34,184 bases of DNA from Acidimicrobiia bacterium (lineage in GTDB: Bacteria > Actinomycetota > Acidimicrobiia > Spongiisociales > JAENVV01), in NCBI GenBank assembly GCA_040883295.1, contig JBFLKR010000048.1:1-34184 (forward strand). The letters run 5' to 3'. The position numbers and the translations under genes are program-made. Under the pieces are notes generated by a model. That model was not told the origin of the DNA, searched no databases, and saw only the letters and a list, made by a program, of their open reading frames with translations. Shown here in pieces: positions 838 to 9,048 of this stretch; position 1 is the stretch's first letter; every line of letters begins with the position of its first letter.

Positions 838-864
838 CTACCCGTGGTTCCGCCGGTCCAAACC
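838..864 (-). promoter_or_regulatory. SigB/SigF-class promoter P1 for dps (GGTTT-N16-GGGTAGG)
   Basis: Minus strand reads GGTTT (864-860), 16-nt spacer (859-844), GGGTAG (843-838), then G. Nine nt (837-829) separate the -10 from ATG 828, implying a leaderless or near-leaderless mRNA. Confidence 0.7.
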
Positions 865-885
865 TGCACGGTCGCGCGAGCTGCG

Positions 886-912
886 GGTTTCCGTCGCCCG
901 AACGCCGGGTAG
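886..912 (+). promoter_or_regulatory. SigB/SigF-class promoter P2 for the 938-1504 gene
   Basis: GGTTT (886-890), 16-nt spacer (891-906), GGGTAG (907-912), then G. The -10 lies 25 nt upstream of ATG 938, with GGAG at 931-934. Confidence 0.7.
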
Positions 913-937
913 GTCGCGGCCGACCCACACGGAGCAG

Positions 938-1504
938 ATGATGTACGAACGCAGCCCCTCACCCGACACCCCGCCGGTCGACGACATCGATCGCCATCCC
1001 GGCACGCCCATGACGACCCTCGGCGAGGTCCGTCGAGACCACAACCTCGTCGCGGCCTACGAGGACGCCGGCCGCGCTCGTGAGGTGATCCTCGAACTCG
1101 AGCAGGGAGGGGTCCCACCCCGCGACATCTCGCTGCTCGGTGCCTGGCCGGTCGAGCGACCGTCCGACGAGCCCGAGCGACCGCGACTGCTCGGCCGTCG
1201 GGTTGCGATCGCCGCCGGCATCGGCGCCGTGGTCTTTGGCATCGTCGGCGGGATCGTGGCCGCGGTCACCGAGGTCATCCCCCTCGTCTTCGGAGCCCTC
1301 GCCGGCGCCGGGTTCGGCGCCCTGCTCGGGGTGCCCGTGGGCTGGATGCGTGGCACCGGCATGTCCGAGGCCTGGCAGGAGACCTTCTCCGCGGACGCCG
1401 AGGGCACCGTGGCGGTGGGCGTCCACGACGACGATGCCGGCGTCATCGACGACGCCGAGCCCGTCATGGCCGCCACGAATCCCAAGGCGATGAACCGCTT
1501 CTGA
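938..1504 (+). CDS. Stress-associated membrane protein (soluble N-terminal domain plus Gly-rich transmembrane segments), function unknown
   Basis: C-terminal 188 aa of ORF 827..1504. Start moved to ATG 938 (or 941) because promoter P2 lies inside the annotated 5' extension. Hydrophobic Gly-zipper stretch: VAIAAGIGAVVFGIVGGIVAAVTEVIPLVFGALAGAGFGALLGVPVGW. Resembles general-stress (YflT-like) membrane proteins, but only by eye. Confidence 0.6.
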   Translation: MMYERSPSPDTPPVDDIDRHPGTPMTTLGEVRRDHNLVAAYEDAGRAREVILELEQGGVPPRDISLLGAWPVERPSDEPERPRLLGRRVAIAAGIGAVVFGIVGGIVAAVTEVIPLVFGALAGAGFGALLGVPVGWMRGTGMSEAWQETFSADAEGTVAVGVHDDDAGVIDDAEPVMAATNPKAMNRF

Positions 1505-1518
1505 GTCCCCGCAGACGC

Positions 1519-1558
1519 ACGACGAAGGGCCCCGGGACGTCCCGGGGCCCTTCGTCGT
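1519..1558. terminator. Perfect 40-bp palindrome, candidate bidirectional terminator between convergent genes
   Basis: ACGACGAAGGGCCCCGGGAC|GTCCCGGGGCCCTTCGTCGT. It sits between the stop at 1504 (+) and the stop at 1575 (-). Confidence 0.6.
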
Positions 1559-1574
1559 CATGGGCTGGGAGGTG

Positions 1575-1793
1575 TCAGTCCTCGCGCCGGACCACGAGCC
1601 ACACGATCAGCGCGATCACGGTTGCCAGCACCGTGCTCGCCACGGCAATCGCCCGCGGATCACTCCGCCAGCGCTCGACGGCCTCGGCGGCCTCGGCGGC
1701 GTTGCCGACCGCCGCCTCGGCAGCGTCGAGGGCCCGATTCGCCCGATCGAGGCGCTCCTCGGTCTCCCGGAGTCGTTCTGCAGTGGTGGTCAT
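1575..1793 (-). CDS. Small tail-anchored coiled-coil membrane protein (72 aa), function unknown
   Basis: MTTTAERLRETEERLDRANRALDAAEAAVGNAAEAAEAVERWRSDPRAIAVASTVLATVIALIVWLVVRRED. ATG 1793 is preceded by AGAGGAG 7 nt upstream. The longer ORF-track version (to 1949) would cover promoter P3. Confidence 0.6.
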   Translation of the reverse strand: MTTTAERLRETEERLDRANRALDAAEAAVGNAAEAAEAVERWRSDPRAIAVASTVLATVIALIVWLVVRRED

Positions 1794-1821
1794 GGACACT
1801 CCTCTTTGGATCGTGATGGCC

Positions 1822-1848
1822 CTACCCACCGAGCCGATCCGCCAAACC
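1822..1848 (-). promoter_or_regulatory. SigB/SigF-class promoter P3 for the 1575-1793 gene
   Basis: Minus strand reads GGTTT (1848-1844), 16-nt spacer (1843-1828), GGGTAG (1827-1822), then G. 28 nt to ATG 1793, including the SD. Confidence 0.7.
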
Positions 1849-2038
1849 GGTTCCCGGTCGGCGACCGGGGAGCCAGATGACGGTGGCCCTTCGCCGCTCC
1901 CTGGAACCGCCCCTCCCGCCTGCCTCCTGCGTCGGCCGGCGGGGCCCATCCACCCTTTCGGGGGGATCTCCTTCTCGTTTCCGGCTGCCGACGTCGACTT
2001 GCTTCCGGGGGAGTTCCCCCTTCTCGGAGGCAGTTCGC

Positions 2039-3091
2039 TCAGTCGATCGTGTCGCGCAGGTGCGCGAGGATGCGGCGCAGGAGCCGTGACACGTGCATCT
2101 GGGAGATGCCGACCCGCTCGGCGATCTCCGACTGGGTCAGCTCGTCGACGAAGCGCAGGCGAAGGATCGTCCGCTCTCGCTCGGGCAGCCCCGCCAGCGC
2201 GGGCCCGAGGTCGCCCAGCTGCTCCACCAGCGCCAGGTCGTCGTGCTCGTCGGCGAGGGTCTCGCCGATGCCCGAGGGCGATGGCGACCCCGGTCGCGGC
2301 GCGTCGATCGATGCCGCGGTGTAGGCCGTGGTCGCCCCGATCGCCGCCACCACCTCGTCGACGTCCATGCCGACTTCCGTGGCCACCTCGGTCGGCGAGG
2401 GGGTGCGGCCGAGCCGTTGGGCGAGATCCTCGCGAGCCCGTCCGACCTCGAGGGCCCGTTCCTGGAGACCGCGGGGCACCCGCACCGACCAGGCGCGGTC
2501 GCGTAGGAGGCGCTTCATCTCGCCGGACACGGTGGCGGCGGCGAAGCGCTCGAAGCGACCGGCTTCGGGGTCGTACCGATCCAGGGCCCGGAGCACTGCG
2601 AGGACCGCCGCCTGCTCGAGGTCGGCGTCGGCGATGCCCTTGTGCCGGTAGTGGCGGGAGATGTCGATCGCCATCGGGGCGAGCCGCCGGACGACCTCGT
2701 CGCGCGCCTCGGAATCGGTGCTCACGATGGCGAGCAGCGAATCCGTCGACTGGTCGGCCAGCGCTGCCGATGCCGACCCGGGCATCCGCACGTCGAACCA
2801 GACGGAGCCAGCGTCGTGGCCCCAGCGCAACGCGAAGCGGTCGAGGACCTCGGCGGTCAGGTCATCGGGCACCTCACCTGGCTGGATCCACACCCGGTGG
2901 GCCGTCGCCACGTCCCCCACCTCCACACGAATGCCCTCGGGGCTGCCGGCCAGCACCGTGCGGCCGACGATCTCGGAGACCAGGAGGGCCGCTGCGGCGC
3001 CTCGGACGGGGTCGAGCTCCAACTCGGCGCCGAGCCAGGCCCTGGCGGCCCGGGGGGCGTCCCGGTCGGCCGCCAGCTCGAGCGCCCTCAC
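2039..3091 (-). CDS. SigB/SigF-family (group 3) sigma-70 factor with an N-terminal RsbW-like (HATPase_c_2-like) domain fused in frame
   Basis: aa ~130-350 carry regions 2-4: DLEQAAVLAVLRALDRYDPEAGRFERFAAATVSGEMKRLLRDRAWSVRVPR; LPERERTILRLRFVDELTQSEIAERVGISQMHVSRLLRR. aa 1-102 (nt 3091-2786) follow the RsbW pattern: ...PRAARAWL...LLVSEIVGRTV...IRVEV...LDRFALRWGHDAGSVWFDV. The GTG start at 3091 overlaps the upstream stop (GTGA). Confidence 0.85.
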   Translation of the reverse strand: MRALELAADRDAPRAARAWLGAELELDPVRGAAAALLVSEIVGRTVLAGSPEGIRVEVGDVATAHRVWIQPGEVPDDLTAEVLDRFALRWGHDAGSVWFDVRMPGSASAALADQSTDSLLAIVSTDSEARDEVVRRLAPMAIDISRHYRHKGIADADLEQAAVLAVLRALDRYDPEAGRFERFAAATVSGEMKRLLRDRAWSVRVPRGLQERALEVGRAREDLAQRLGRTPSPTEVATEVGMDVDEVVAAIGATTAYTAASIDAPRPGSPSPSGIGETLADEHDDLALVEQLGDLGPALAGLPERERTILRLRFVDELTQSEIAERVGISQMHVSRLLRRILAHLRDTID

Positions 3092-3411
3092 GGGCCACCG
3101 ACTCGGATGCGGAAACCACCCGGCGTCGATTCGACGCCCGCCACCGACGAGGCGATCCGCAGGACGATGTCGTCGGGCGTGGGTGGGCGCTCGCCAACGA
3201 TCTCCACCAGGTCGGCTTCGGGAACGGTGATCACCAGCCGGCCCCCGTCCTCCCGCACGAAGGCGGTGACGAGTTCGGAGACGGCGAGCCGTGCCGAGGC
3301 GATGTCATCCTCGGTTGCCTCCCGGGATCGCAGGACGCCGGAAACGAAGGCCCGGGCCACCACCACGCCATCATCGGTGGCATCGATCTCGAGTCGGGCC
3401 GGGCCGGTCAC
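3088..3411 (-). CDS. RsbW-like anti-sigma paralogue C, degenerate (N-box Asn replaced by Ala), 107 aa
   Basis: C-terminal part of ORF 3088..3708: VTGPARLEIDATDDGVVVARAFVSGVL...ARLAVSELVTAFV...RLVITV...GGFRIRV. GTG 3411-3409 overlaps the STAS stop 3410-3408 (GTGA). The Arg-rich upstream extension is not credible coding sequence. Confidence 0.6.
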   Translation of the reverse strand: MTGPARLEIDATDDGVVVARAFVSGVLRSREATEDDIASARLAVSELVTAFVREDGGRLVITVPEADLVEIVGERPPTPDDIVLRIASSVAGVESTPGGFRIRVGGP

Positions 3412-3743
3412 TCGTCGGGCAGCTCGTCCGGTTCGTCGACGACTGGGAGCCGATCCAGCACTCCGGCGACCTCCAGCACTCGACGCACCGGACCGGGACC
3501 GCACACGAGGCCGAGTGGTCGGCCGTCCTCGGCGAGGCGTCGTCGTGCCGTGAGGAGGGACCGGAGCCCACTCGAGTCCATGAACGAGACCGACCGCAGG
3601 TCGACCGCCACCGGACCTGCGTGGGCGTCGATGGCCGCGTCGAGCGCGCCGTCGAGCGACGGAGCCGAGGCGATGTCGATCTCGCCGCTCGCCGCCACGA
3701 GGTGCCACCCACGGTGGTCGGACGTCGTCAGATGGAGGAGCAT
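3408..3743 (-). CDS. STAS-domain anti-anti-sigma factor (RsbV/SpoIIAA-like)
   Basis: MLLHLTTSDHRGWHLVAASGEIDIASAPSL...VDLRSVSFMDSSGLRSLL...GLVCGPGPVRRVLEVAGV, with the conserved phosphorylatable Ser in DSSG. Start 3743 is preferred over 3764 because the intervening codons (ATA CGA TTG) are atypical for this GC3-rich sequence. Confidence 0.85.
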   Translation of the reverse strand: MLLHLTTSDHRGWHLVAASGEIDIASAPSLDGALDAAIDAHAGPVAVDLRSVSFMDSSGLRSLLTARRRLAEDGRPLGLVCGPGPVRRVLEVAGVLDRLPVVDEPDELPDE

Positions 3744-3770
3744 GAGGTGCGCCAATCGTATCATCGGCCC

Positions 3771-4115
3771 ATGCCAGGCCCGATCCGTCTCACGGTGCCG
3801 GCCGACCCCCGGTGGCTCGGCGTCATCGACCTGGTCGTCGGCGCCGCCCCCCGATTCGTCTACGACGAGGCGGGTGTCCTCGACGACCTCGCCATCGCGG
3901 TGGGCGAGGTGGCGGCCGAGGTGGGCGCCACGGCCGGTGTCGCGGAACTCGAGGTGACCGTGGACGACGACCGGGTGGAGATCGCCGGTCGCGGCACGGA
4001 TGTGGTCTGGGAGCCGGGACCGGTGTGGGAGCGGCTCGTGCCGGGCCTGGCCGAGGTGGGGTGGGACGTCGAACCCTCGGGGATCAGGGTCTGGCTGGCG
4101 CCACTGCCAGCTTGA
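3771..4115 (+). CDS. RsbW-like paralogue B, degenerate (N-box Asn replaced by Glu), 114 aa
   Basis: Part of ORF 3291..4115 from ATG 3771: MPGPIRLTVPADPRWLGVIDLVVGAAPRFV...LAIAVGEVAAEVG...ELEVTVDDDRVEI...GIRVWL. Third codon positions are strongly G/C, as in real genes here. Confidence 0.55.
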   Translation: MPGPIRLTVPADPRWLGVIDLVVGAAPRFVYDEAGVLDDLAIAVGEVAAEVGATAGVAELEVTVDDDRVEIAGRGTDVVWEPGPVWERLVPGLAEVGWDVEPSGIRVWLAPLPA

Positions 4116-4488
4116 ACCAGGCCCGGACGTGGCCGGTCGCGGCCTCGAGGCCCCACGCATCGGCGAGGCGATCGACCAGCAGCAGGCCGAAGCCGCCGGG
4201 ATGGTCGTCCTTGCTCGGGCCCCTGACGGGGGGGCCCGTCGCGACGACCTCGACCCGGCACGTGCCGTCCTCGCTGACGATCGCGAGCAGCAGGTCCTCG
4301 CCACCTTCGAGTCCACGGTGGCGGAGGACGTTGGTCACGATCTCCGACGTCAGGATCTCGGCGACCTCGGTGATCGACCCGTCCCCGAGATGCCCGCGCA
4401 CGGCCCGACGGGCGGCAGCGGGGGCCCGATCGTCCGCCGGCAGCGTGATGGCCTCGGTGGCCGATTCCGTGGTGCCCCGGTCGGTCAT
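4084..4488 (-). CDS. RsbW/SpoIIAB-type anti-sigma factor (HATPase_c_2), paralogue A
   Basis: 134 aa. N-box intact (SEIVTNVLRH). G2-like GGFGLLLVDRLADAWG. The G1 position reads VVATGPP (Asp missing). ATG 4488 overlaps the stop of the upstream gene (ATGA). Confidence 0.8.
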   Translation of the reverse strand: MTDRGTTESATEAITLPADDRAPAAARRAVRGHLGDGSITEVAEILTSEIVTNVLRHRGLEGGEDLLLAIVSEDGTCRVEVVATGPPVRGPSKDDHPGGFGLLLVDRLADAWGLEAATGHVRAWFKLAVAPARP

Positions 4489-4988
4489 GGGCGGTCACCG
4501 TACCCGGAGTCACCGTCGTCCTCGGTGCGGAAGGAGAACACGGGCAGCCAGAACCAGGCCCAGGTCGTGAAGCCGAGTACGGCCGCGGCGACCGCCGCGG
4601 CCGGGATCACGCCGAACAGCAGCGAGGTGACGAACCAGGCGACGGCGCCGATGGCGACGGCGGCCGCCACCGTTCCGGCCAGGGCCAGGTGCACCGCGAT
4701 TCGCACGTGGCCCAGGTGCTTGCGAGGTATCCCCGTCAGCGGTGCCCGGACCCGTTGGTGCACCGAGGGGGCGATGAGCAGCACCGAGGCGGCGCCGGCG
4801 GCGGCGAACGCGACGTAGTACGACGCCCGCTGGTCGGCCGTGGCCGTCGTGAACGGACTCGACAACGGGACCGTGAGGAGGAAGGCGAAGAGGACCATCA
4901 CCCCGGGGATCGTCGTTCGGAGCCCCTCGAGCAGGGCCCGGAATCGCTGGTCGATCCCGTCGTCGGTGACGTCGTCGGAGGATCGCAT
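4485..4988 (-). CDS. DUF6328-like integral membrane protein
   Basis: 167 aa. RALLEGLRTTIPGVMVLFAFLLTVPL plus further hydrophobic helices resembles the actinobacterial DUF6328 family (from memory, not searched). ATG 4988 lies 9 nt downstream of a GGGTAGG box. Confidence 0.55.
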   Translation of the reverse strand: MRSSDDVTDDGIDQRFRALLEGLRTTIPGVMVLFAFLLTVPLSSPFTTATADQRASYYVAFAAAGAASVLLIAPSVHQRVRAPLTGIPRKHLGHVRIAVHLALAGTVAAAVAIGAVAWFVTSLLFGVIPAAAVAAAVLGFTTWAWFWLPVFSFRTEDDGDSGYGDRP

Positions 4989-4997
4989 GACGAGCGC

Positions 4998-5024
4998 CTA
5001 CCCGGGCTCGCTGCTCGCCAAACC
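4998..5024 (-). promoter_or_regulatory. SigB/SigF-class promoter P4 for the DUF6328-rsbW operon
   Basis: Minus strand reads GGTTT (5024-5020), 16-nt spacer (5019-5004), GGGTAG (5003-4998), then G. Nine nt (4997-4989) to ATG 4988, the same geometry as P1. Confidence 0.7.
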
Positions 5025-5036
5025 GGTCCGGGGCCG

Positions 5037-5063
5037 GGTTTCGTGGGCCGCGTCTGCGGGTAG
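5037..5063 (+). promoter_or_regulatory. SigB/SigF-class promoter P5 for the ferredoxin gene
   Basis: GGTTT (5037-5041), 16-nt spacer (5042-5057), GGGTAG (5058-5063), then G. 29 nt to ATG 5093. Confidence 0.7.
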
Positions 5064-5092
5064 GTGTGGGGCCACCTATCGGGGACAACCAC

Positions 5093-5419
5093 ATGAGTGA
5101 CGACACCACCACGCTGATGGTCTGGATCGACCAGGACCTCTGCACCGGCGACGGGATCTGCGAGGAGATCGCCCCCGACGTCTTCGTCGGTCGCGACGAC
5201 GGCCTCTGGGTCGTCAAGGAGGAGGCCGAGCACTTCGGCGAGACGATCGTCTTCGACGGTCGCGACGGCGATGGTCACGGTCCCGAAGGCGCCCGCGGCG
5301 TCGCCCGGGTGCCCGACGAGCTCATCGACGACACCGTCGAGGCCGCCCAGGAGTGCCCCGGCGAGTGCATCATGATCGAGCCGTACGACGCACAGCTCGT
5401 CGACGAACGCGCCGCCTGA
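5093..5419 (+). CDS. Single-cluster ferredoxin (CxxDxxC...CP type)
   Basis: MSDDTTTLMVWIDQDLCTGDGICEEIAPDVF...AAQECPGECIMIE. Start set at ATG 5093 because GTG 5066 lies only 2 nt after the P5 -10 box. Confidence 0.8.
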   Translation: MSDDTTTLMVWIDQDLCTGDGICEEIAPDVFVGRDDGLWVVKEEAEHFGETIVFDGRDGDGHGPEGARGVARVPDELIDDTVEAAQECPGECIMIEPYDAQLVDERAA

Positions 5420-5435
5420 GGAGCTCCCACGGCCC

Positions 5436-5459
5436 GGTCGGCCGGTCCGGGGGCCGACC
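5436..5459 (+). terminator. GC hairpin after the ferredoxin gene
   Basis: GGTCGGCC (5436-5443), 8-nt loop, GGCCGACC (5452-5459). Followed by tcggaattcgg. Confidence 0.3.
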
Positions 5460-5509
5460 TCGGAATTCGGGCGGCGTGACCCGCGTCCGGTCCTACCATC
5501 GCCGGTCGC

Positions 5510-7297
5510 GTGTCCGACACCTCCCCCTCCTTCTGGGCGGTGCTCCGCAAGGGTGTCCGCCTCGTCGCCGGGCTCATCGCCGCCCATCCGTGGGCCTTCG
5601 CGGTGGCCCTCTCCGGCGCGCTCGTGTACGCGGGCTCGATCATCGCCTCCAGTCGGGTCATCGGGTGGGTCACCGATGAGGTGGTGCTCGGCGTCCTCAC
5701 CGAGGGTGCCGACGACGCGATCGTCTGGACCGGGGTCTGGCTCATCGTCGGCGTCGCCGTCGTCAAGGCGGCCGGCATCGTCGCCCGCCGCATCGGGGCG
5801 GGGTGGCTCTACCTCCAGAACCGACGCGACATGCGTCGGAGGTTCGTGGCCCAGGTCCTGCGGCTCGACATGGACTGGTACAACCGCCAGGCCGTCGGCA
5901 ACCTCATCTCGATCGCCGAGGCGGACGTGGCCCAGGCCACCTCCGTCCTCAACCCACTCCCGTACGCCACCGGCTCGGCGGTGCTGCTCATCGGCGCCAC
6001 CGTCCTCGTCTTCCTCCTCGACCCGACCCTCGGGTGGATCGCCCTCGCCTTCCTCGGCACCGCCATCATCCTCGAGCTGCGTGGCGCCTACGTCACGTTC
6101 ACACTCGTCGAGGTGGTCCAGCGTCTCCGCGGCAACCTCGCCGCCGGCGCCCACGAGTCGTTCGACGGCGCCCTGACCGTCAAGGCCTTCGGCCGGGAGG
6201 ACTGGGAGTCCGAGCGCTTCGAGGCATCCTCGGCGGTGCTGCGTGACCACCTCATCGGGCTCGGCCGGGTCTGGGAGAACTTCAAGGCGCTCGTGGAGGG
6301 CATCCCGACCGTTGCCCAGGTCGTGATCGTCACCGTCGGGGTGCTGCGGGTCGCCGAGGGGGCGGTGTCGGCCGGGGACATCGTCTCGATCGCCTACCTG
6401 CTCACCCTCCTCTTCTGGCCCATCCAACTCATCGGCTTCGTCATCTTCGACACCGCTGCCGCCACCGCCTCGGCCGATCGTGTGGATGCGGTGCTGACCG
6501 CCGACGAGCACGTCCGCCACGGCACCGGGCCCGCCGGCTCGCCCGACGCCGGGGCCGGGGTCGGGGCCGAGGCGGTGGGTTTCGGCTACGACGGGCTGCC
6601 GGTCCTCGCCGACGTCGACCTCGACATCCCCTCGGGCCGCATCGTGGCGGTTGTCGGGCCCACCGGATCGGGGAAGACGACACTCACCGTGCTCCTCGCG
6701 CGGCTGTGGGACCCGCGGTCGGGCTCGATCCGCCTCGACGGCCGTGATCTGCGCGACCTGGCGGCGGCCGCCCTCGCCGACGAGGTGGCCTACGTCCCCC
6801 AGGAGGCGTTCCTCTTCGACGACACCGTCCTCGGCAACCTGACGCTGGGGCTCGACGTGCCGTTCGACGAGGTGGAGGCCGCCGCCCGCCTCGCCCGAGC
6901 CCATGAGTTCGTCATGTCCCTCCCGCGCGGGTACGAGACCCGGATCGGCGAGCGGGGCGCCGCCCTCTCGGGTGGCCAGCGGCAGCGGATCGCCCTCGCC
7001 CGGGCGCTGCTCCGACGTCCTCGGCTGCTGGTGCTCGATGACGCCACCTCCGCCGTCGATCCCTCGGTCGAAGCCGAGATCCTCGGTGCCCTTCGGGAGG
7101 CCGACCTTCCCTCGACGGTGGTGGTCGTCGCCTACCGCTCCTCCACGATCGCCCTTGCCGACGAGGTCGTGTTCATGGCCGACGGCCGGGTCGTGGCCCA
7201 GGGCGGCCATGGCGAGTTGTTGGCCTCCCAACCCGGCTACGTCCGCCTGCTCACCGCCTACGAAGAGGACGCCCGTCGTCGGGAGGGTTCGCCGTGA
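5510..7297 (+). CDS. ABC exporter, fused permease/ATPase subunit 1 (degenerate catalytic residues)
   Basis: 595 aa. N-terminal TM domain. Walker A GPTGSGKTT, signature LSGGQRQRIALARALL, Walker B LLVLDDATSAVD (Asp where the catalytic Glu is expected), H-loop position reads AYRSS. GTG start. Confidence 0.9.
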   Translation: MSDTSPSFWAVLRKGVRLVAGLIAAHPWAFAVALSGALVYAGSIIASSRVIGWVTDEVVLGVLTEGADDAIVWTGVWLIVGVAVVKAAGIVARRIGAGWLYLQNRRDMRRRFVAQVLRLDMDWYNRQAVGNLISIAEADVAQATSVLNPLPYATGSAVLLIGATVLVFLLDPTLGWIALAFLGTAIILELRGAYVTFTLVEVVQRLRGNLAAGAHESFDGALTVKAFGREDWESERFEASSAVLRDHLIGLGRVWENFKALVEGIPTVAQVVIVTVGVLRVAEGAVSAGDIVSIAYLLTLLFWPIQLIGFVIFDTAAATASADRVDAVLTADEHVRHGTGPAGSPDAGAGVGAEAVGFGYDGLPVLADVDLDIPSGRIVAVVGPTGSGKTTLTVLLARLWDPRSGSIRLDGRDLRDLAAAALADEVAYVPQEAFLFDDTVLGNLTLGLDVPFDEVEAAARLARAHEFVMSLPRGYETRIGERGAALSGGQRQRIALARALLRRPRLLVLDDATSAVDPSVEAEILGALREADLPSTVVVVAYRSSTIALADEVVFMADGRVVAQGGHGELLASQPGYVRLLTAYEEDARRREGSP

Positions 7298-9048
7298 GCG
7301 AGCGGTCGGCGAGTGCCGTCGTCGTCCGGGCGATCCGGGAGGTGCCGCCGTTCCGCGTCGGTCTCGCCTTCACGCTCGTGCTCGTCCTCCTCGGCACCGG
7401 CGCCCAGGTCGTCGTGCCCATCTACCTCCAGCGGCTGACCGACGCCGGCTCGCTCGGCAGCCTCGACCCAGTCACCGTGCTCGGCCTCGGCGCCGGAGCG
7501 GCGACCTTCGTCGTGGCCGGGGTGCTGGCGTCGCGGGCGGCCCGCATCCGCCTCATGGAGGCCTCCACCCGGGGGCTCCACGTCCTGCGGACCGAGACGT
7601 TCGCCCGTCTCCACGCCCAGTCGGTGCTCGTCACCCAGGAACGCCGGCGGGGAGCGCTCATCGCCCGGGTCACCAACGACGTCGAGCGGGTGCAGGAGTT
7701 CATGGAGTGGGGCGGCGTGGGGCTGCTGGTCGGCTCCGCCCGGGTGGTCGTGATGCTCGGGATCATGGTGGTCTACTCGTGGCAGCTGGCGCTGCTCGTC
7801 GGCGTCGCCACGGCCGTCTACGGGGGGTTGTTGCTCGGCTTCCAGCGGGTGCTGGCCCGCGCCCACGACACGGCCCGGCTCCGGGTCGCCGATGTCATGG
7901 CGACCACCGGCGAGGCGATCTCGGGCCTGCCGATCGTTCGAACCCACGGGGCCGAGCGCCACACGCTCCGCAAGCTCGACCGGGCCCTCTTCCGGGAGTT
8001 CCGAGCCGACTTCCGGGCTGCGGTGCTGGGCAACGTGCTGTTCGCCACCGCCGAGGCGTACGCCGGCGGGATCACGGCCGGGGTGCTGGCGTTCGGGATC
8101 TGGCTCGGCCTGGCCGGCGAGGTGACCGCGGGCGTGTTGGTGGCCTTCTTCTTCCTCGTGGCGCTTCTGGTGGAGCCGGTCCAGACGATGGTGGAGACCC
8201 TCGACCCGGCCCAGGCCGCCGGGGCGGGCCTCCGGCGGATCTTCGAGGTGCACGACGAGCCGATCGAGGTGGCCGACCCGGGCCCCGGCGGCACGCCGCT
8301 GCCACCGGGCCGTCTCGGCCTCGAGTTGGTCGACCTCGGCTACACCTACCCGGACGGGACCGAGGCGGTCGCCGGGGTGACACTGACGGTGGCGCCGGGC
8401 GAGCGGGTGGCGATCGTCGGCGAGACCGGGTCGGGGAAGACGACGTTCGCCAAGCTCGCCGCCCGCATCCTCGAGCGGGACTCGGGCGACTTCCACATCG
8501 GCGGGGTGCCGATCGACCGGATCCCGTTCGCGTCGCTCCGTCGTCGGGTCACCTACGTGCCCCAGGAGGGGTTCCTCCACGACGACACGATCGAGGGCAA
8601 CGTCCGCTACGGCCGGCTCGATGCCACCCGCGCCGAGGTGGAGGCGGCGTTCGCCGACCTCGGCCTCGCGGAGTGGGTGGCGAGCCTTCCCGAAGGACTC
8701 GACACCCGGGTGGGGGAGCGGGGCGGCCGCCTCTCGGCGGGGGAGCGCCAGCTCGTCGCGCTGGTGCGGGCCTCCATCGCCGATCCCGACCTGCTCGTCC
8801 TCGACGAGGCGACCTCCTCGGTCGATCCCGCCCTCGAGGTGGGGCTCCGCCGGGCCCTCGAGGTGCTGCTGGCCGGGCGCACGAGCCTCACCATCGCCCA
8901 CCGGCTCTCGACCGCCGAGGCCGCCGACCGGGTGCTCGTGTTCGACGGGGGGCGGATCGTCGAGGACGGGACCCACGCCGAACTGGTCGCCACCGGGGGC
9001 GTCTACGCCGGGCTGCACGCCGATTGGATCCGGGGCACCCGGACCTGA
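7294..9048 (+). CDS. ABC exporter, fused permease/ATPase subunit 2 (degenerate signature)
   Basis: 584 aa. Walker A GETGSGKTT, signature LSAGERQLVALVRASI, Walker B LLVLDEATSSVD, H-loop IAHRLST. GTGA overlap with subunit 1. Confidence 0.9.
   Translation: MSERSASAVVVRAIREVPPFRVGLAFTLVLVLLGTGAQVVVPIYLQRLTDAGSLGSLDPVTVLGLGAGAATFVVAGVLASRAARIRLMEASTRGLHVLRTETFARLHAQSVLVTQERRRGALIARVTNDVERVQEFMEWGGVGLLVGSARVVVMLGIMVVYSWQLALLVGVATAVYGGLLLGFQRVLARAHDTARLRVADVMATTGEAISGLPIVRTHGAERHTLRKLDRALFREFRADFRAAVLGNVLFATAEAYAGGITAGVLAFGIWLGLAGEVTAGVLVAFFFLVALLVEPVQTMVETLDPAQAAGAGLRRIFEVHDEPIEVADPGPGGTPLPPGRLGLELVDLGYTYPDGTEAVAGVTLTVAPGERVAIVGETGSGKTTFAKLAARILERDSGDFHIGGVPIDRIPFASLRRRVTYVPQEGFLHDDTIEGNVRYGRLDATRAEVEAAFADLGLAEWVASLPEGLDTRVGERGGRLSAGERQLVALVRASIADPDLLVLDEATSSVDPALEVGLRRALEVLLAGRTSLTIAHRLSTAEAADRVLVFDGGRIVEDGTHAELVATGGVYAGLHADWIRGTRT

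Follow-up and report, generated by a model that had tools for sequence, protein, structure and literature searches.

A probable SigF/SigB-type partner-switching cassette of Acidimicrobiia with four RsbW-like modules of incomplete ATP site, one of them fused to the sigma factor

How a partner-switching system may operate when every one of its RsbW-like modules has lost part of the ATP site is the question raised by a gene cassette in an Acidimicrobiia bacterium (GenBank assembly GCA_040883295.1, contig JBFLKR010000048.1). The window, i.e., the whole stretch of 34,184 nucleotides (nt) that was analysed, had a G+C content of ~72%, and the cassette spanned positions 2039-4988. It consisted of a DUF6328 gene, module A, module B on the opposite strand, a STAS gene, module C and gene D, in which an RsbW-like domain was fused to a sigma factor (Table 1). 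The first-pass annotation had described one possible kinase plus three pseudokinase modules that compete for one antagonist and one sigma factor. According to the sequence comparisons, all four modules are RsbW/SpoIIAB homologues, each with part of the ATP site lost. The locus is read here, with moderate confidence, as an autoregulated SigF/SigB-type partner-switching cassette, namely a binding-only switch that would operate with four ATP-site-defective copies of the RsbW fold.

The relationship of the four modules to RsbW was examined by Pfam, by profile alignment (hhalign) and by structure prediction. Module A was the only module that passed the Pfam HATPase_c_2 cut-off singly (29.9 bits vs 27.4), and its family profile matched RsbW (7.7e-12) and SpoIIAB (1.4e-10) in the Protein Data Bank (PDB) with the boxes aligned. 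The other three modules were aligned to the A-family profile at 97.3% for B (E 1.8e-11, 114 columns), 97.0% for C (E 9.6e-11, N-terminal 75 columns only) and 98.9% for the D N-domain (E 2e-17), which was closest to the A type. B aligned with C at 93.4%, and C with the D N-domain at 94.5%. As single sequences, neither B nor the D N-terminus had a Pfam match, and that of C was marginal (E 0.029). Family PF13581 was matched by all 12 of the 12 C-family members (best E 4e-5) and by 7 of 19 relatives of B, and it was precomputed on many fused homologues of D. Among PDB sequences, RsbW was the top match of the B profile (1.2e-7), with RsbW and the M. tuberculosis anti-SigF (UsfX) leading the matches; the M. 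tuberculosis anti-SigF was the top match of the C profile (3e-5; entries 8jzt and 8ih8, anti-SigF RsbW), and the profile of the window-clade D N-domain had no match there. The AlphaFold2 models of B (pLDDT 90.6, pTM 0.84) and of the D N-domain (pLDDT 91-98) had the same topology, b-a-a-b-b-a-b-b, with no lid. The best 19 Foldseek matches of the B model were all RsbW, UsfX or SpoIIAB (6m36_A, 2.7e-7; TM 0.77 to 8jzt_B). A Foldseek search with the whole D model returned a list filled by sigma-factor matches, which was uninformative for the N-domain. The earlier count of four RsbW-like modules was therefore upheld, and B and C matched the family in both profile and structure searches.

The state of each ATP site was read in a frame set by the RsbW/SpoIIAB alignment, in which the N-box is SEACTN/SEAVTN, G1 is ADEGDS/RDEGVG and G2 is GGLGL/SGMGF. 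In A, the N-box SEIVTN kept E49 and the Asn N53, and H57 and the G2 box GGFGL were also kept. The G1 motif DxGxG was replaced by ATGPP at residues 83-87, both in this frame and in a family alignment that included canonical kinases. The G1 Asp is the adenine-binding residue in GHKL ATPases. The same column was DDGPGF, DPGSGF, DVGDGF or DGGPGF in other Acidimicrobiia A-like proteins. The cassette orthologues of A carried GRGTI (locus L085) and GRGRF (L086), which argues that the loss of the G1 Asp is old. In B, the N-box was GEVAAE (E46, then Glu E50 at the Asn position), and the G2 box and the ATP lid were absent, the models of B and of the D N-domain running from b3 through a short loop to a3. 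C had SELVTA (E46, then Ala A50), within a motif RLAVSEL.T that was invariant in its family, and was without the N-box Asn, G1, G2 and the lid. The D N-domain had SEIVGR (E40, then Arg R44), and in the window clade G2 had been lost along with the Asn (PDDLTAEVL at G2, where distant fused sigma factors have GFGFTLL). The residues that the first-pass annotation had given for the Asn position and for G1 of A were thus exact. Its division into one kinase and three pseudokinases held for B, C and D, which have lost ATP-binding residues; for A, which has no G1 Asp, "one possible kinase" was generous if anything.

An Arg that aligns to SpoIIAB R20 was invariant in the A family (R27) and in the C family (R20), and its equivalent in D (R17) was kept in at least 90% of 110 fused sigma factors. 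SpoIIAB R20 reportedly contacts both sigma F and SpoIIAA; hence, A, C and the D N-domain should still bind partners. At window positions 3828-3830, the Asp D20 of B replaced this Arg, a charge reversal in the window's clade, and the Arg was kept in most other members of the B family.

The sigma body of D matched Pfam regions 2, 3 and 4 (2.2e-10, 1.4e-13 and 4.3e-19, respectively) and the NCBIfam SigF model PRK07122 (1.5e-63), and it scored 212 bits against TIGR02980, slightly under the cut-off of 234. The family of D comprised more than 100 Acidimicrobiia proteins of 335-380 amino acids (aa; typically ~355-370), which covered at least 89% of D and mostly at least 93%. These proteins were collinear over the full length, with the N-domain, a linker (WFEVRxPG ... 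ARDEVVRR) and the sigma body. RsbW-sigma fusions are widespread in Acidimicrobiia. Among the 110 aligned fused sigma factors, including the D of the window, the Asn column carried Asn in 58 sequences, His in 20, Ala in 11 and Arg in 9. The members with Asn also kept GFGFTLL, and a G1 DxGxG was not apparent in the members read (HP.. instead). A scan of the genome collection with full-length D returned mainly unfused SigF/SigB genes (78 of 80 loci; Mycobacterium, Streptomyces and others) because the conserved patterns fell in the sigma regions; the scan was of use only for controls and for loci such as L029 and L051. A metagenome scan with the D N-domain returned a single locus. A literature search found no paper on an RsbW-sigma fusion or on RsbW pseudokinases.

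The gene order STAS, C, D, joined by GTGA overlaps, was shared with six further loci, and C occupies the canonical RsbW slot between STAS and sigma. The D gene as a whole covers 2039-3091, and the DUF6328/A junction is an ATGA overlap. B converges on A, with a 3' overlap of 32 nt (4084-4115), and diverges from STAS, with a 27-nt spacer between the two starts. The first-pass annotation had delimited the feature as 3088-4488, a range that contains A, B and C, omits the D domain and leaves the plus strand of B unstated. The convergent overlap means that the mRNA ends of A and B would be complementary. In L085, L086, L089 and L092, this overlap was kept at 32-38 nt.

Evidence that B is a gene came mainly from its conservation. 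GC by codon position in B (.83/.50/.88) was ambiguous, since the open STAS frame reaches 4316 and its codons are in register with those of B. In the B frame, the substitutions at the three codon positions in the comparisons (vs L089 and L091) were 10, 10 and 34; 22, 18 and 46; and 24, 17 and 42. This third-position excess was also the pattern of A, STAS and D, and B is judged from it to be under purifying selection in its own frame. B was called as a gene by independent annotations, and an identical protein has been deposited as hypothetical protein AB1Z57_04125 from an Acidimicrobiia metagenome-assembled genome (MAG); a near-identical C is deposited as hypothetical protein AB1Z57_04135, also from an Acidimicrobiia MAG. 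B-like proteins of 109-125 aa lay in the same place and on the same strand wherever the locus was readable (L085-L087, L089-L092 and L029), with orthologue identities of 24-84%. The B family is rare, as an exhaustive profile search yielded 16 proteins in 1.84 billion representatives. Word-indexed homologue searches gave 5 matches for B and 9 for C, close relatives only.

The STAS protein matched Pfam STAS (7.7e-16) and STAS_2 (3.3e-16), as well as NCBIfam TIGR00377 (66.8 bits vs a cut-off of 53.45). Its acceptor Ser57 was kept in all STAS orthologues, as DSS/DST-G in all cassettes. As had been noticed at first pass, it is the single STAS gene with an intact acceptor site; HMMs for the four RsbW-like modules and for STAS found no additional copies in the 34-kb window, which also held neither a PP2C phosphatase nor a further kinase. 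No module has a full ATP site and no PP2C is present in the window; hence, phosphorylation of the STAS protein, if any, would probably be performed by an unlinked kinase. Some cassette-bearing relatives (L086 6082-10234; L092 1-55 and 5188-5565) carried PAS-GAF-SpoIIE phosphatases, a second STAS gene and, on the downstream side of D, a second RsbW-like gene. None of these extra genes was present in the window.

The full cassette, with A, B (opposite), STAS, C and D, was found in five further loci (L085, L086, L089, L091 and L092) at a D identity of 47-88%. In L087 (D identity 44%), the core B-STAS-C-D was kept and A was absent. The aa differences from L089 and L091 were 32% and 39% for C, 23% and 27% for the D N-domain, 16% and 31% for B, 14% and 28% for A, 8% and 15% for STAS, and 6% and 8% for the sigma body. 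The RsbW-like modules thus evolve faster than the core. A recent origin of the four modules as tandem duplicates was rejected, each being an old orthologous lineage in a fixed position; the local duplication of B, C and D, which the first-pass annotation had raised as a question, would not be recent, as the lineages were kept in place down to 47% D identity (44% in L087). Other arrangements also occurred. The complete Acidimicrobiia chromosome L029 (4797-7060) had B (opposite)-STAS-C followed by an unfused sigma gene, plus a canonical DxGxG RsbW kinase. In L005 (5434-6408) and L021 (5453-6186), STAS was followed directly by the fused sigma gene with no C, and the fused domain was the only RsbW-like module adjoining STAS. 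The latter layout means that the fused domain can itself occupy the RsbW slot.

The regulatory DNA was consistent with an active sigma factor. Five exact GTTT-N16-GGGTA motifs (SigF/SigB-type) were present in the window vs ~0.7-1 expected, and none of 100 shuffles reached five. All five lay within 839-5062, flanking the cassette, and each faced a nearby gene start. The same five sites were found in L085, and one upstream of A in each of L086 and L092; the DUF6328-A motif was at the equivalent place in L085 and L091. The mycobacterial SigF promoter consensus is GTTT-N17-GGGTAA (PMC7693655). The number of sites and their conservation in L085, L086 and L092 argue for D being a functional sigma factor that controls a small local regulon and activates its own expression. 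A scan of 1500-5600 for sigma-70 promoter and terminator consensus gave nothing useful.

A second conserved element was located in the spacer between B and STAS. Among the full-cassette loci read, the 11-mer GATGATACGAT occurred once in each but L092, where the close variant AATGATAGGAT stood; L087 had the 11-mer as well, and 84 other loci did not. One of its boxes, TACGAT, points toward STAS, and the other, TATCAT, points toward B on the other strand, with an overlap of two bases. TATCAT lay 6 nt before the ATG of B in the window and 6-7 nt before the B start codon in six loci. A distance of 6-7 nt from the -10 box to the start codon is the usual spacing in actinobacterial leaderless genes. 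The spacing suggests a leaderless B mRNA together with mutually exclusive promoters for B and STAS-C-D, or else an operator. The conserved motif also means that STAS-C-D may have its own promoter.

Table 1. Positions of the cassette genes, domains and putative regulatory elements in the window.
Feature	Positions	Strand	Basis or remark
DUF6328 membrane protein	4485..4988	-	Pfam PF19853, E 3.8e-21; stop overlaps A start (ATGA)
Module A, RsbW-type HATPase_c_2 protein, 134 aa	4084..4488	-	Pfam HATPase_c_2, 29.9 bits
Module B, RsbW/UsfX-like protein, 114 aa	3771..4115	+	hhalign, AlphaFold2, Foldseek, codon-position substitutions
Conserved 11-mer in the 27-nt B/STAS spacer	3755..3765	-	two overlapping divergent TANNNT -10 boxes
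STAS anti-sigma-factor antagonist, 111 aa, FMDSSG (acceptor Ser57)	3408..3743	-	Pfam, NCBIfam
Module C, kinase-dead RsbW/UsfX-like protein, 107 aa	3088..3411	-	canonical anti-sigma slot; GTGA overlaps with STAS and D
D N-domain, lid-less RsbW-like, residues 1-102	2786..3091	-	hhalign, AlphaFold2
D sigma body, SigB/SigF-type group-3, regions 2, 3 and 4, residues 127-350	2039..2713	-	Pfam, NCBIfam
GTTT-N16-GGGTA motif, 10 nt upstream of DUF6328 start	4999..5023	-	putative autoregulatory cassette promoter
GTTT-N16-GGGTA motif upstream of ferredoxin gene (likely start 5093)	5038..5062	+	consensus match; same place in L085
GTTT-N16-GGGTA motif upstream of 72-aa membrane protein (start 1793), immediately downstream of D	1823..1847	-	consensus match
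GTTT-N16-GGGTA motif before Dps/ferritin gene	863->839	-	consensus match; divergent from 887-911
GTTT-N16-GGGTA motif before Gly-rich membrane protein	887-911	+	consensus match

On the observed folds, motif states, gene order, conservation and promoter motifs, the following mechanism can be built. The sigma body would be held inactive by kinase-dead RsbW-like modules through binding only, as by mycobacterial UsfX/RsbW1. C, which is translationally coupled to D, would act with the cis-tethered D N-domain, most simply as a C:D N-domain heterodimer that mimics the RsbW/SpoIIAB dimer that binds one sigma factor. One SpoIIAB dimer binds a single sigma factor; hence, an RsbW domain tethered to sigma would need a sigma-free partner, for which the co-translated C is the obvious candidate. 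The unphosphorylated STAS protein, with Ser57 intact, would compete for the same surface and free the sigma body. The free sigma factor would then drive its own operon and a local stress regulon of Dps, ferredoxin and small membrane proteins. A and B may modulate the switch, like M. smegmatis RsbW3, either by binding STAS or by forming heterodimers with C or the D N-domain. B would be expressed from its own leaderless promoter, which would overlap the STAS-C-D promoter back to back, and any kinase for STAS Ser57 would probably be encoded elsewhere. Translation of DUF6328 and A is coupled, and the former is a candidate membrane partner or sensor of the latter. The most specific form of this proposal is improbable as a whole: the switch would be free of kinases, sigma would carry half of its anti-sigma dimer in cis and have it completed by C, the outcome would be set purely by competitive binding of the kinase-dead A and B and of STAS, and the overlapping, mutually exclusive B and STAS-C-sigma promoters would add a transcriptional toggle to the protein switch.

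Several observations weigh against the binding-only switch. A retains the N-box Asn, the His and the G2 box, and residual nucleotide binding or kinase activity may therefore persist in it. SpoIIE-type phosphatases stand beside the cassette in L086 and L092, which argues for a phosphorylation cycle in the lineage. The AlphaFold2 model of full-length D had a pTM of 0.50, so that the model does not define where the N-domain lies with respect to the sigma body and gives cis-inhibition no structural support. The C-terminal third of C was unaligned to the family by hhalign, and C evolves fastest of the cassette (32-39% aa differences vs 6-8% for the sigma body). With Asp in place of the partner-binding Arg in the window clade, the partner of B may differ, and B may not bind STAS. 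The promoter calls are consensus matches only.

Among the other explanations, a conventional module with passengers is judged unlikely. C alone would be the anti-sigma factor, UsfX-like and acting by binding only, STAS would be its antagonist, and the D N-domain, A and B would be accessory or decaying relics that contribute little to regulation. The order STAS-C-sigma is that of rsbV-rsbW-sigB, the same core stands beside an unfused sigma gene in L029, and the best solved relatives of C are M. tuberculosis anti-SigF complexed with SigF and with RsfB. The D N-domain is, moreover, without Asn and G2 in the window clade. However, at 47-88% D identity all three of these modules were kept in place, two of them (the D N-domain and B) even in L087 at 44%, with an excess of third-position substitutions. 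The model of the D N-domain has pLDDT >91, its R17 is retained in at least 90% of the 110 fused sigma factors, and no RsbW-like module other than the fused domain stands beside STAS in L005 and L021.

A classical phospho-switch also appears doubtful. A would be a working Ser kinase with an atypical G1 and with STAS Ser57 as its substrate, and the other three modules would serve for binding only, in line with the one kinase plus three pseudokinases of the first-pass annotation. A is the sole module above the Pfam cut-off and keeps E49, N53, H57 and GGFGL, the acceptor Ser of STAS is kept, and the cassettes of L086 and L092 have SpoIIE phosphatases as neighbours. Conversely, the G1 Asp is absent from cassette-type A proteins in the window, L085 and L086, whereas it is kept in other Acidimicrobiia A-like proteins, and the window holds no phosphatase.

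Pure titration, the decoy network of the first-pass annotation, has a still smaller chance of being correct. A, B, C and the D N-domain would compete for the single STAS protein or as dimer partners, their relative amounts would set the activity of sigma, and the B promoter would compete physically with that of STAS-C-D. The partner-binding Arg conserved in A, C and the D N-domain agrees with such a network, as do the separate promoter classes, i.e., the sigma-dependent motif before DUF6328-A and the overlapping divergent -10 boxes for B and STAS-C-D. Furthermore, M. smegmatis RsbW3 antagonises RsbW1 by binding (PMC7693655). However, B of the window clade has Asp at the Arg position and may not bind STAS, and this explanation rests entirely on inference.

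It is very improbable that B is no gene but a chance open frame antisense to the A-STAS spacer, or an upstream extension of the STAS frame: the STAS frame is indeed open through the region and codon-aligned with B, and B alone has no Pfam match, but the substitution excess falls on the third codon position of B and not on the first (which ruled out B as an artefact of the open STAS frame), orthologues at 24-84% identity have an unchanged position and strand in the loci that were read, the RsbW-like model is confident, TATCAT is conserved 6-7 nt ahead of the B start codon in six loci, and the STAS orthologues all begin MLL.

The binding-only switch has its closest known counterpart in mycobacterial SigF partner switching (UsfX/RsbW1, RsbW2, RsbW3, RsfA and RsfB). 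Both systems have a SigF-type sigma factor with a similar promoter consensus and a STAS antagonist with a conserved Ser, which is regulatory in mycobacteria. In both, the anti-sigma factor has lost the N-box Asn, and the mycobacterial one acts by binding only; in M. tuberculosis UsfX the Asn is replaced by Arg (DEVCTRL), as in D. Several RsbW paralogues are shared as well, and in mycobacteria their roles are divided, with RsbW3 binding and thereby antagonising the anti-sigma factor. Work on SigF of M. smegmatis already documents such specialisation, with a kinase-dead anti-sigma factor, a separate kinase paralogue and an antagonist paralogue (PMC7693655), so that the "multi-decoy" variant proposed at first pass is no new principle. 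The cassette differs in that it is compact, with one STAS gene, whereas the mycobacterial system is spread over three loci and has two; in addition, one paralogue here is fused to sigma and one is antisense between the operon halves. Unlike M. smegmatis RsbW2, which has all of the N, G1 and G2 boxes, no paralogue here keeps all three.

The Bacillus modules RsbV-RsbW-SigB and SpoIIAA-SpoIIAB-SigF share with the cassette the order STAS, anti-sigma, sigma, the acceptor Ser in D-S-x-G, the R20-equivalent Arg and a Bergerat-fold anti-sigma factor, and their structures were among the top Foldseek and profile matches (6m36, 6m37, 1th8 and 1l0o). In Bacillus, the anti-sigma factor is also a kinase with intact N, G1 and G2 boxes, whereas the slot protein C here is without all three and the lid, and three additional RsbW-like modules are present. 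M. tuberculosis Rv1364c (PP2C-RsbW-STAS; PDB 3ke6, which was among the structural and profile matches) sets an actinobacterial precedent for joining partner-switching modules covalently. It joins phosphatase, kinase and antagonist, whereas here an RsbW-like domain stands on the N-terminus of sigma. Extracytoplasmic function (ECF) sigma factors such as ECF41 and ECF42, which belong to group 4, have a cis regulatory domain in the form of a C-terminal extension of unrelated fold. D has likewise a cis domain, but this domain is N-terminal and derived from the GHKL fold, and D belongs to the group-3 sigma factors of SigB/F type. In noncontiguous operons, or excludons, a gene lies antisense inside an operon, and the position of B between A and STAS-C-D resembles this arrangement. 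What sets the locus apart is the fusion of a group-3 sigma factor to an RsbW-like domain, the presence of four ATP-site-defective modules within one cassette and the antisense-encoded member.

The surroundings of the cassette were those of an ordinary chromosome and not of a mobile element. DUF6328 was immediately 5' of A in L001, L085 and L091, and in L086 it was upstream of A across a ~290-nt gap. The neighbours in the window were two tandem ABC exporter genes (5510-9048), and beyond them an F-type ATP synthase operon ran from 9859 to ~16000, in which the a, b, delta, alpha and gamma subunits were found.

In textbook SigB/SigF partner switching, the anti-sigma factor doubles as the kinase, and the cassette shows how far this scheme can drift. 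The arrangement is conserved across a lineage of uncultured Acidimicrobiia. B and C, annotated as hypothetical protein in the source record, can now be named, and the GTTT-N16-GGGTA sites define a small candidate regulon. If the cis domain does autoinhibit sigma, D would be, to our knowledge, the first known group-3 sigma factor with a built-in anti-sigma domain. The cassette would then also offer a compact natural setting in which to ask how binding partners are shared out among pseudokinase paralogues.

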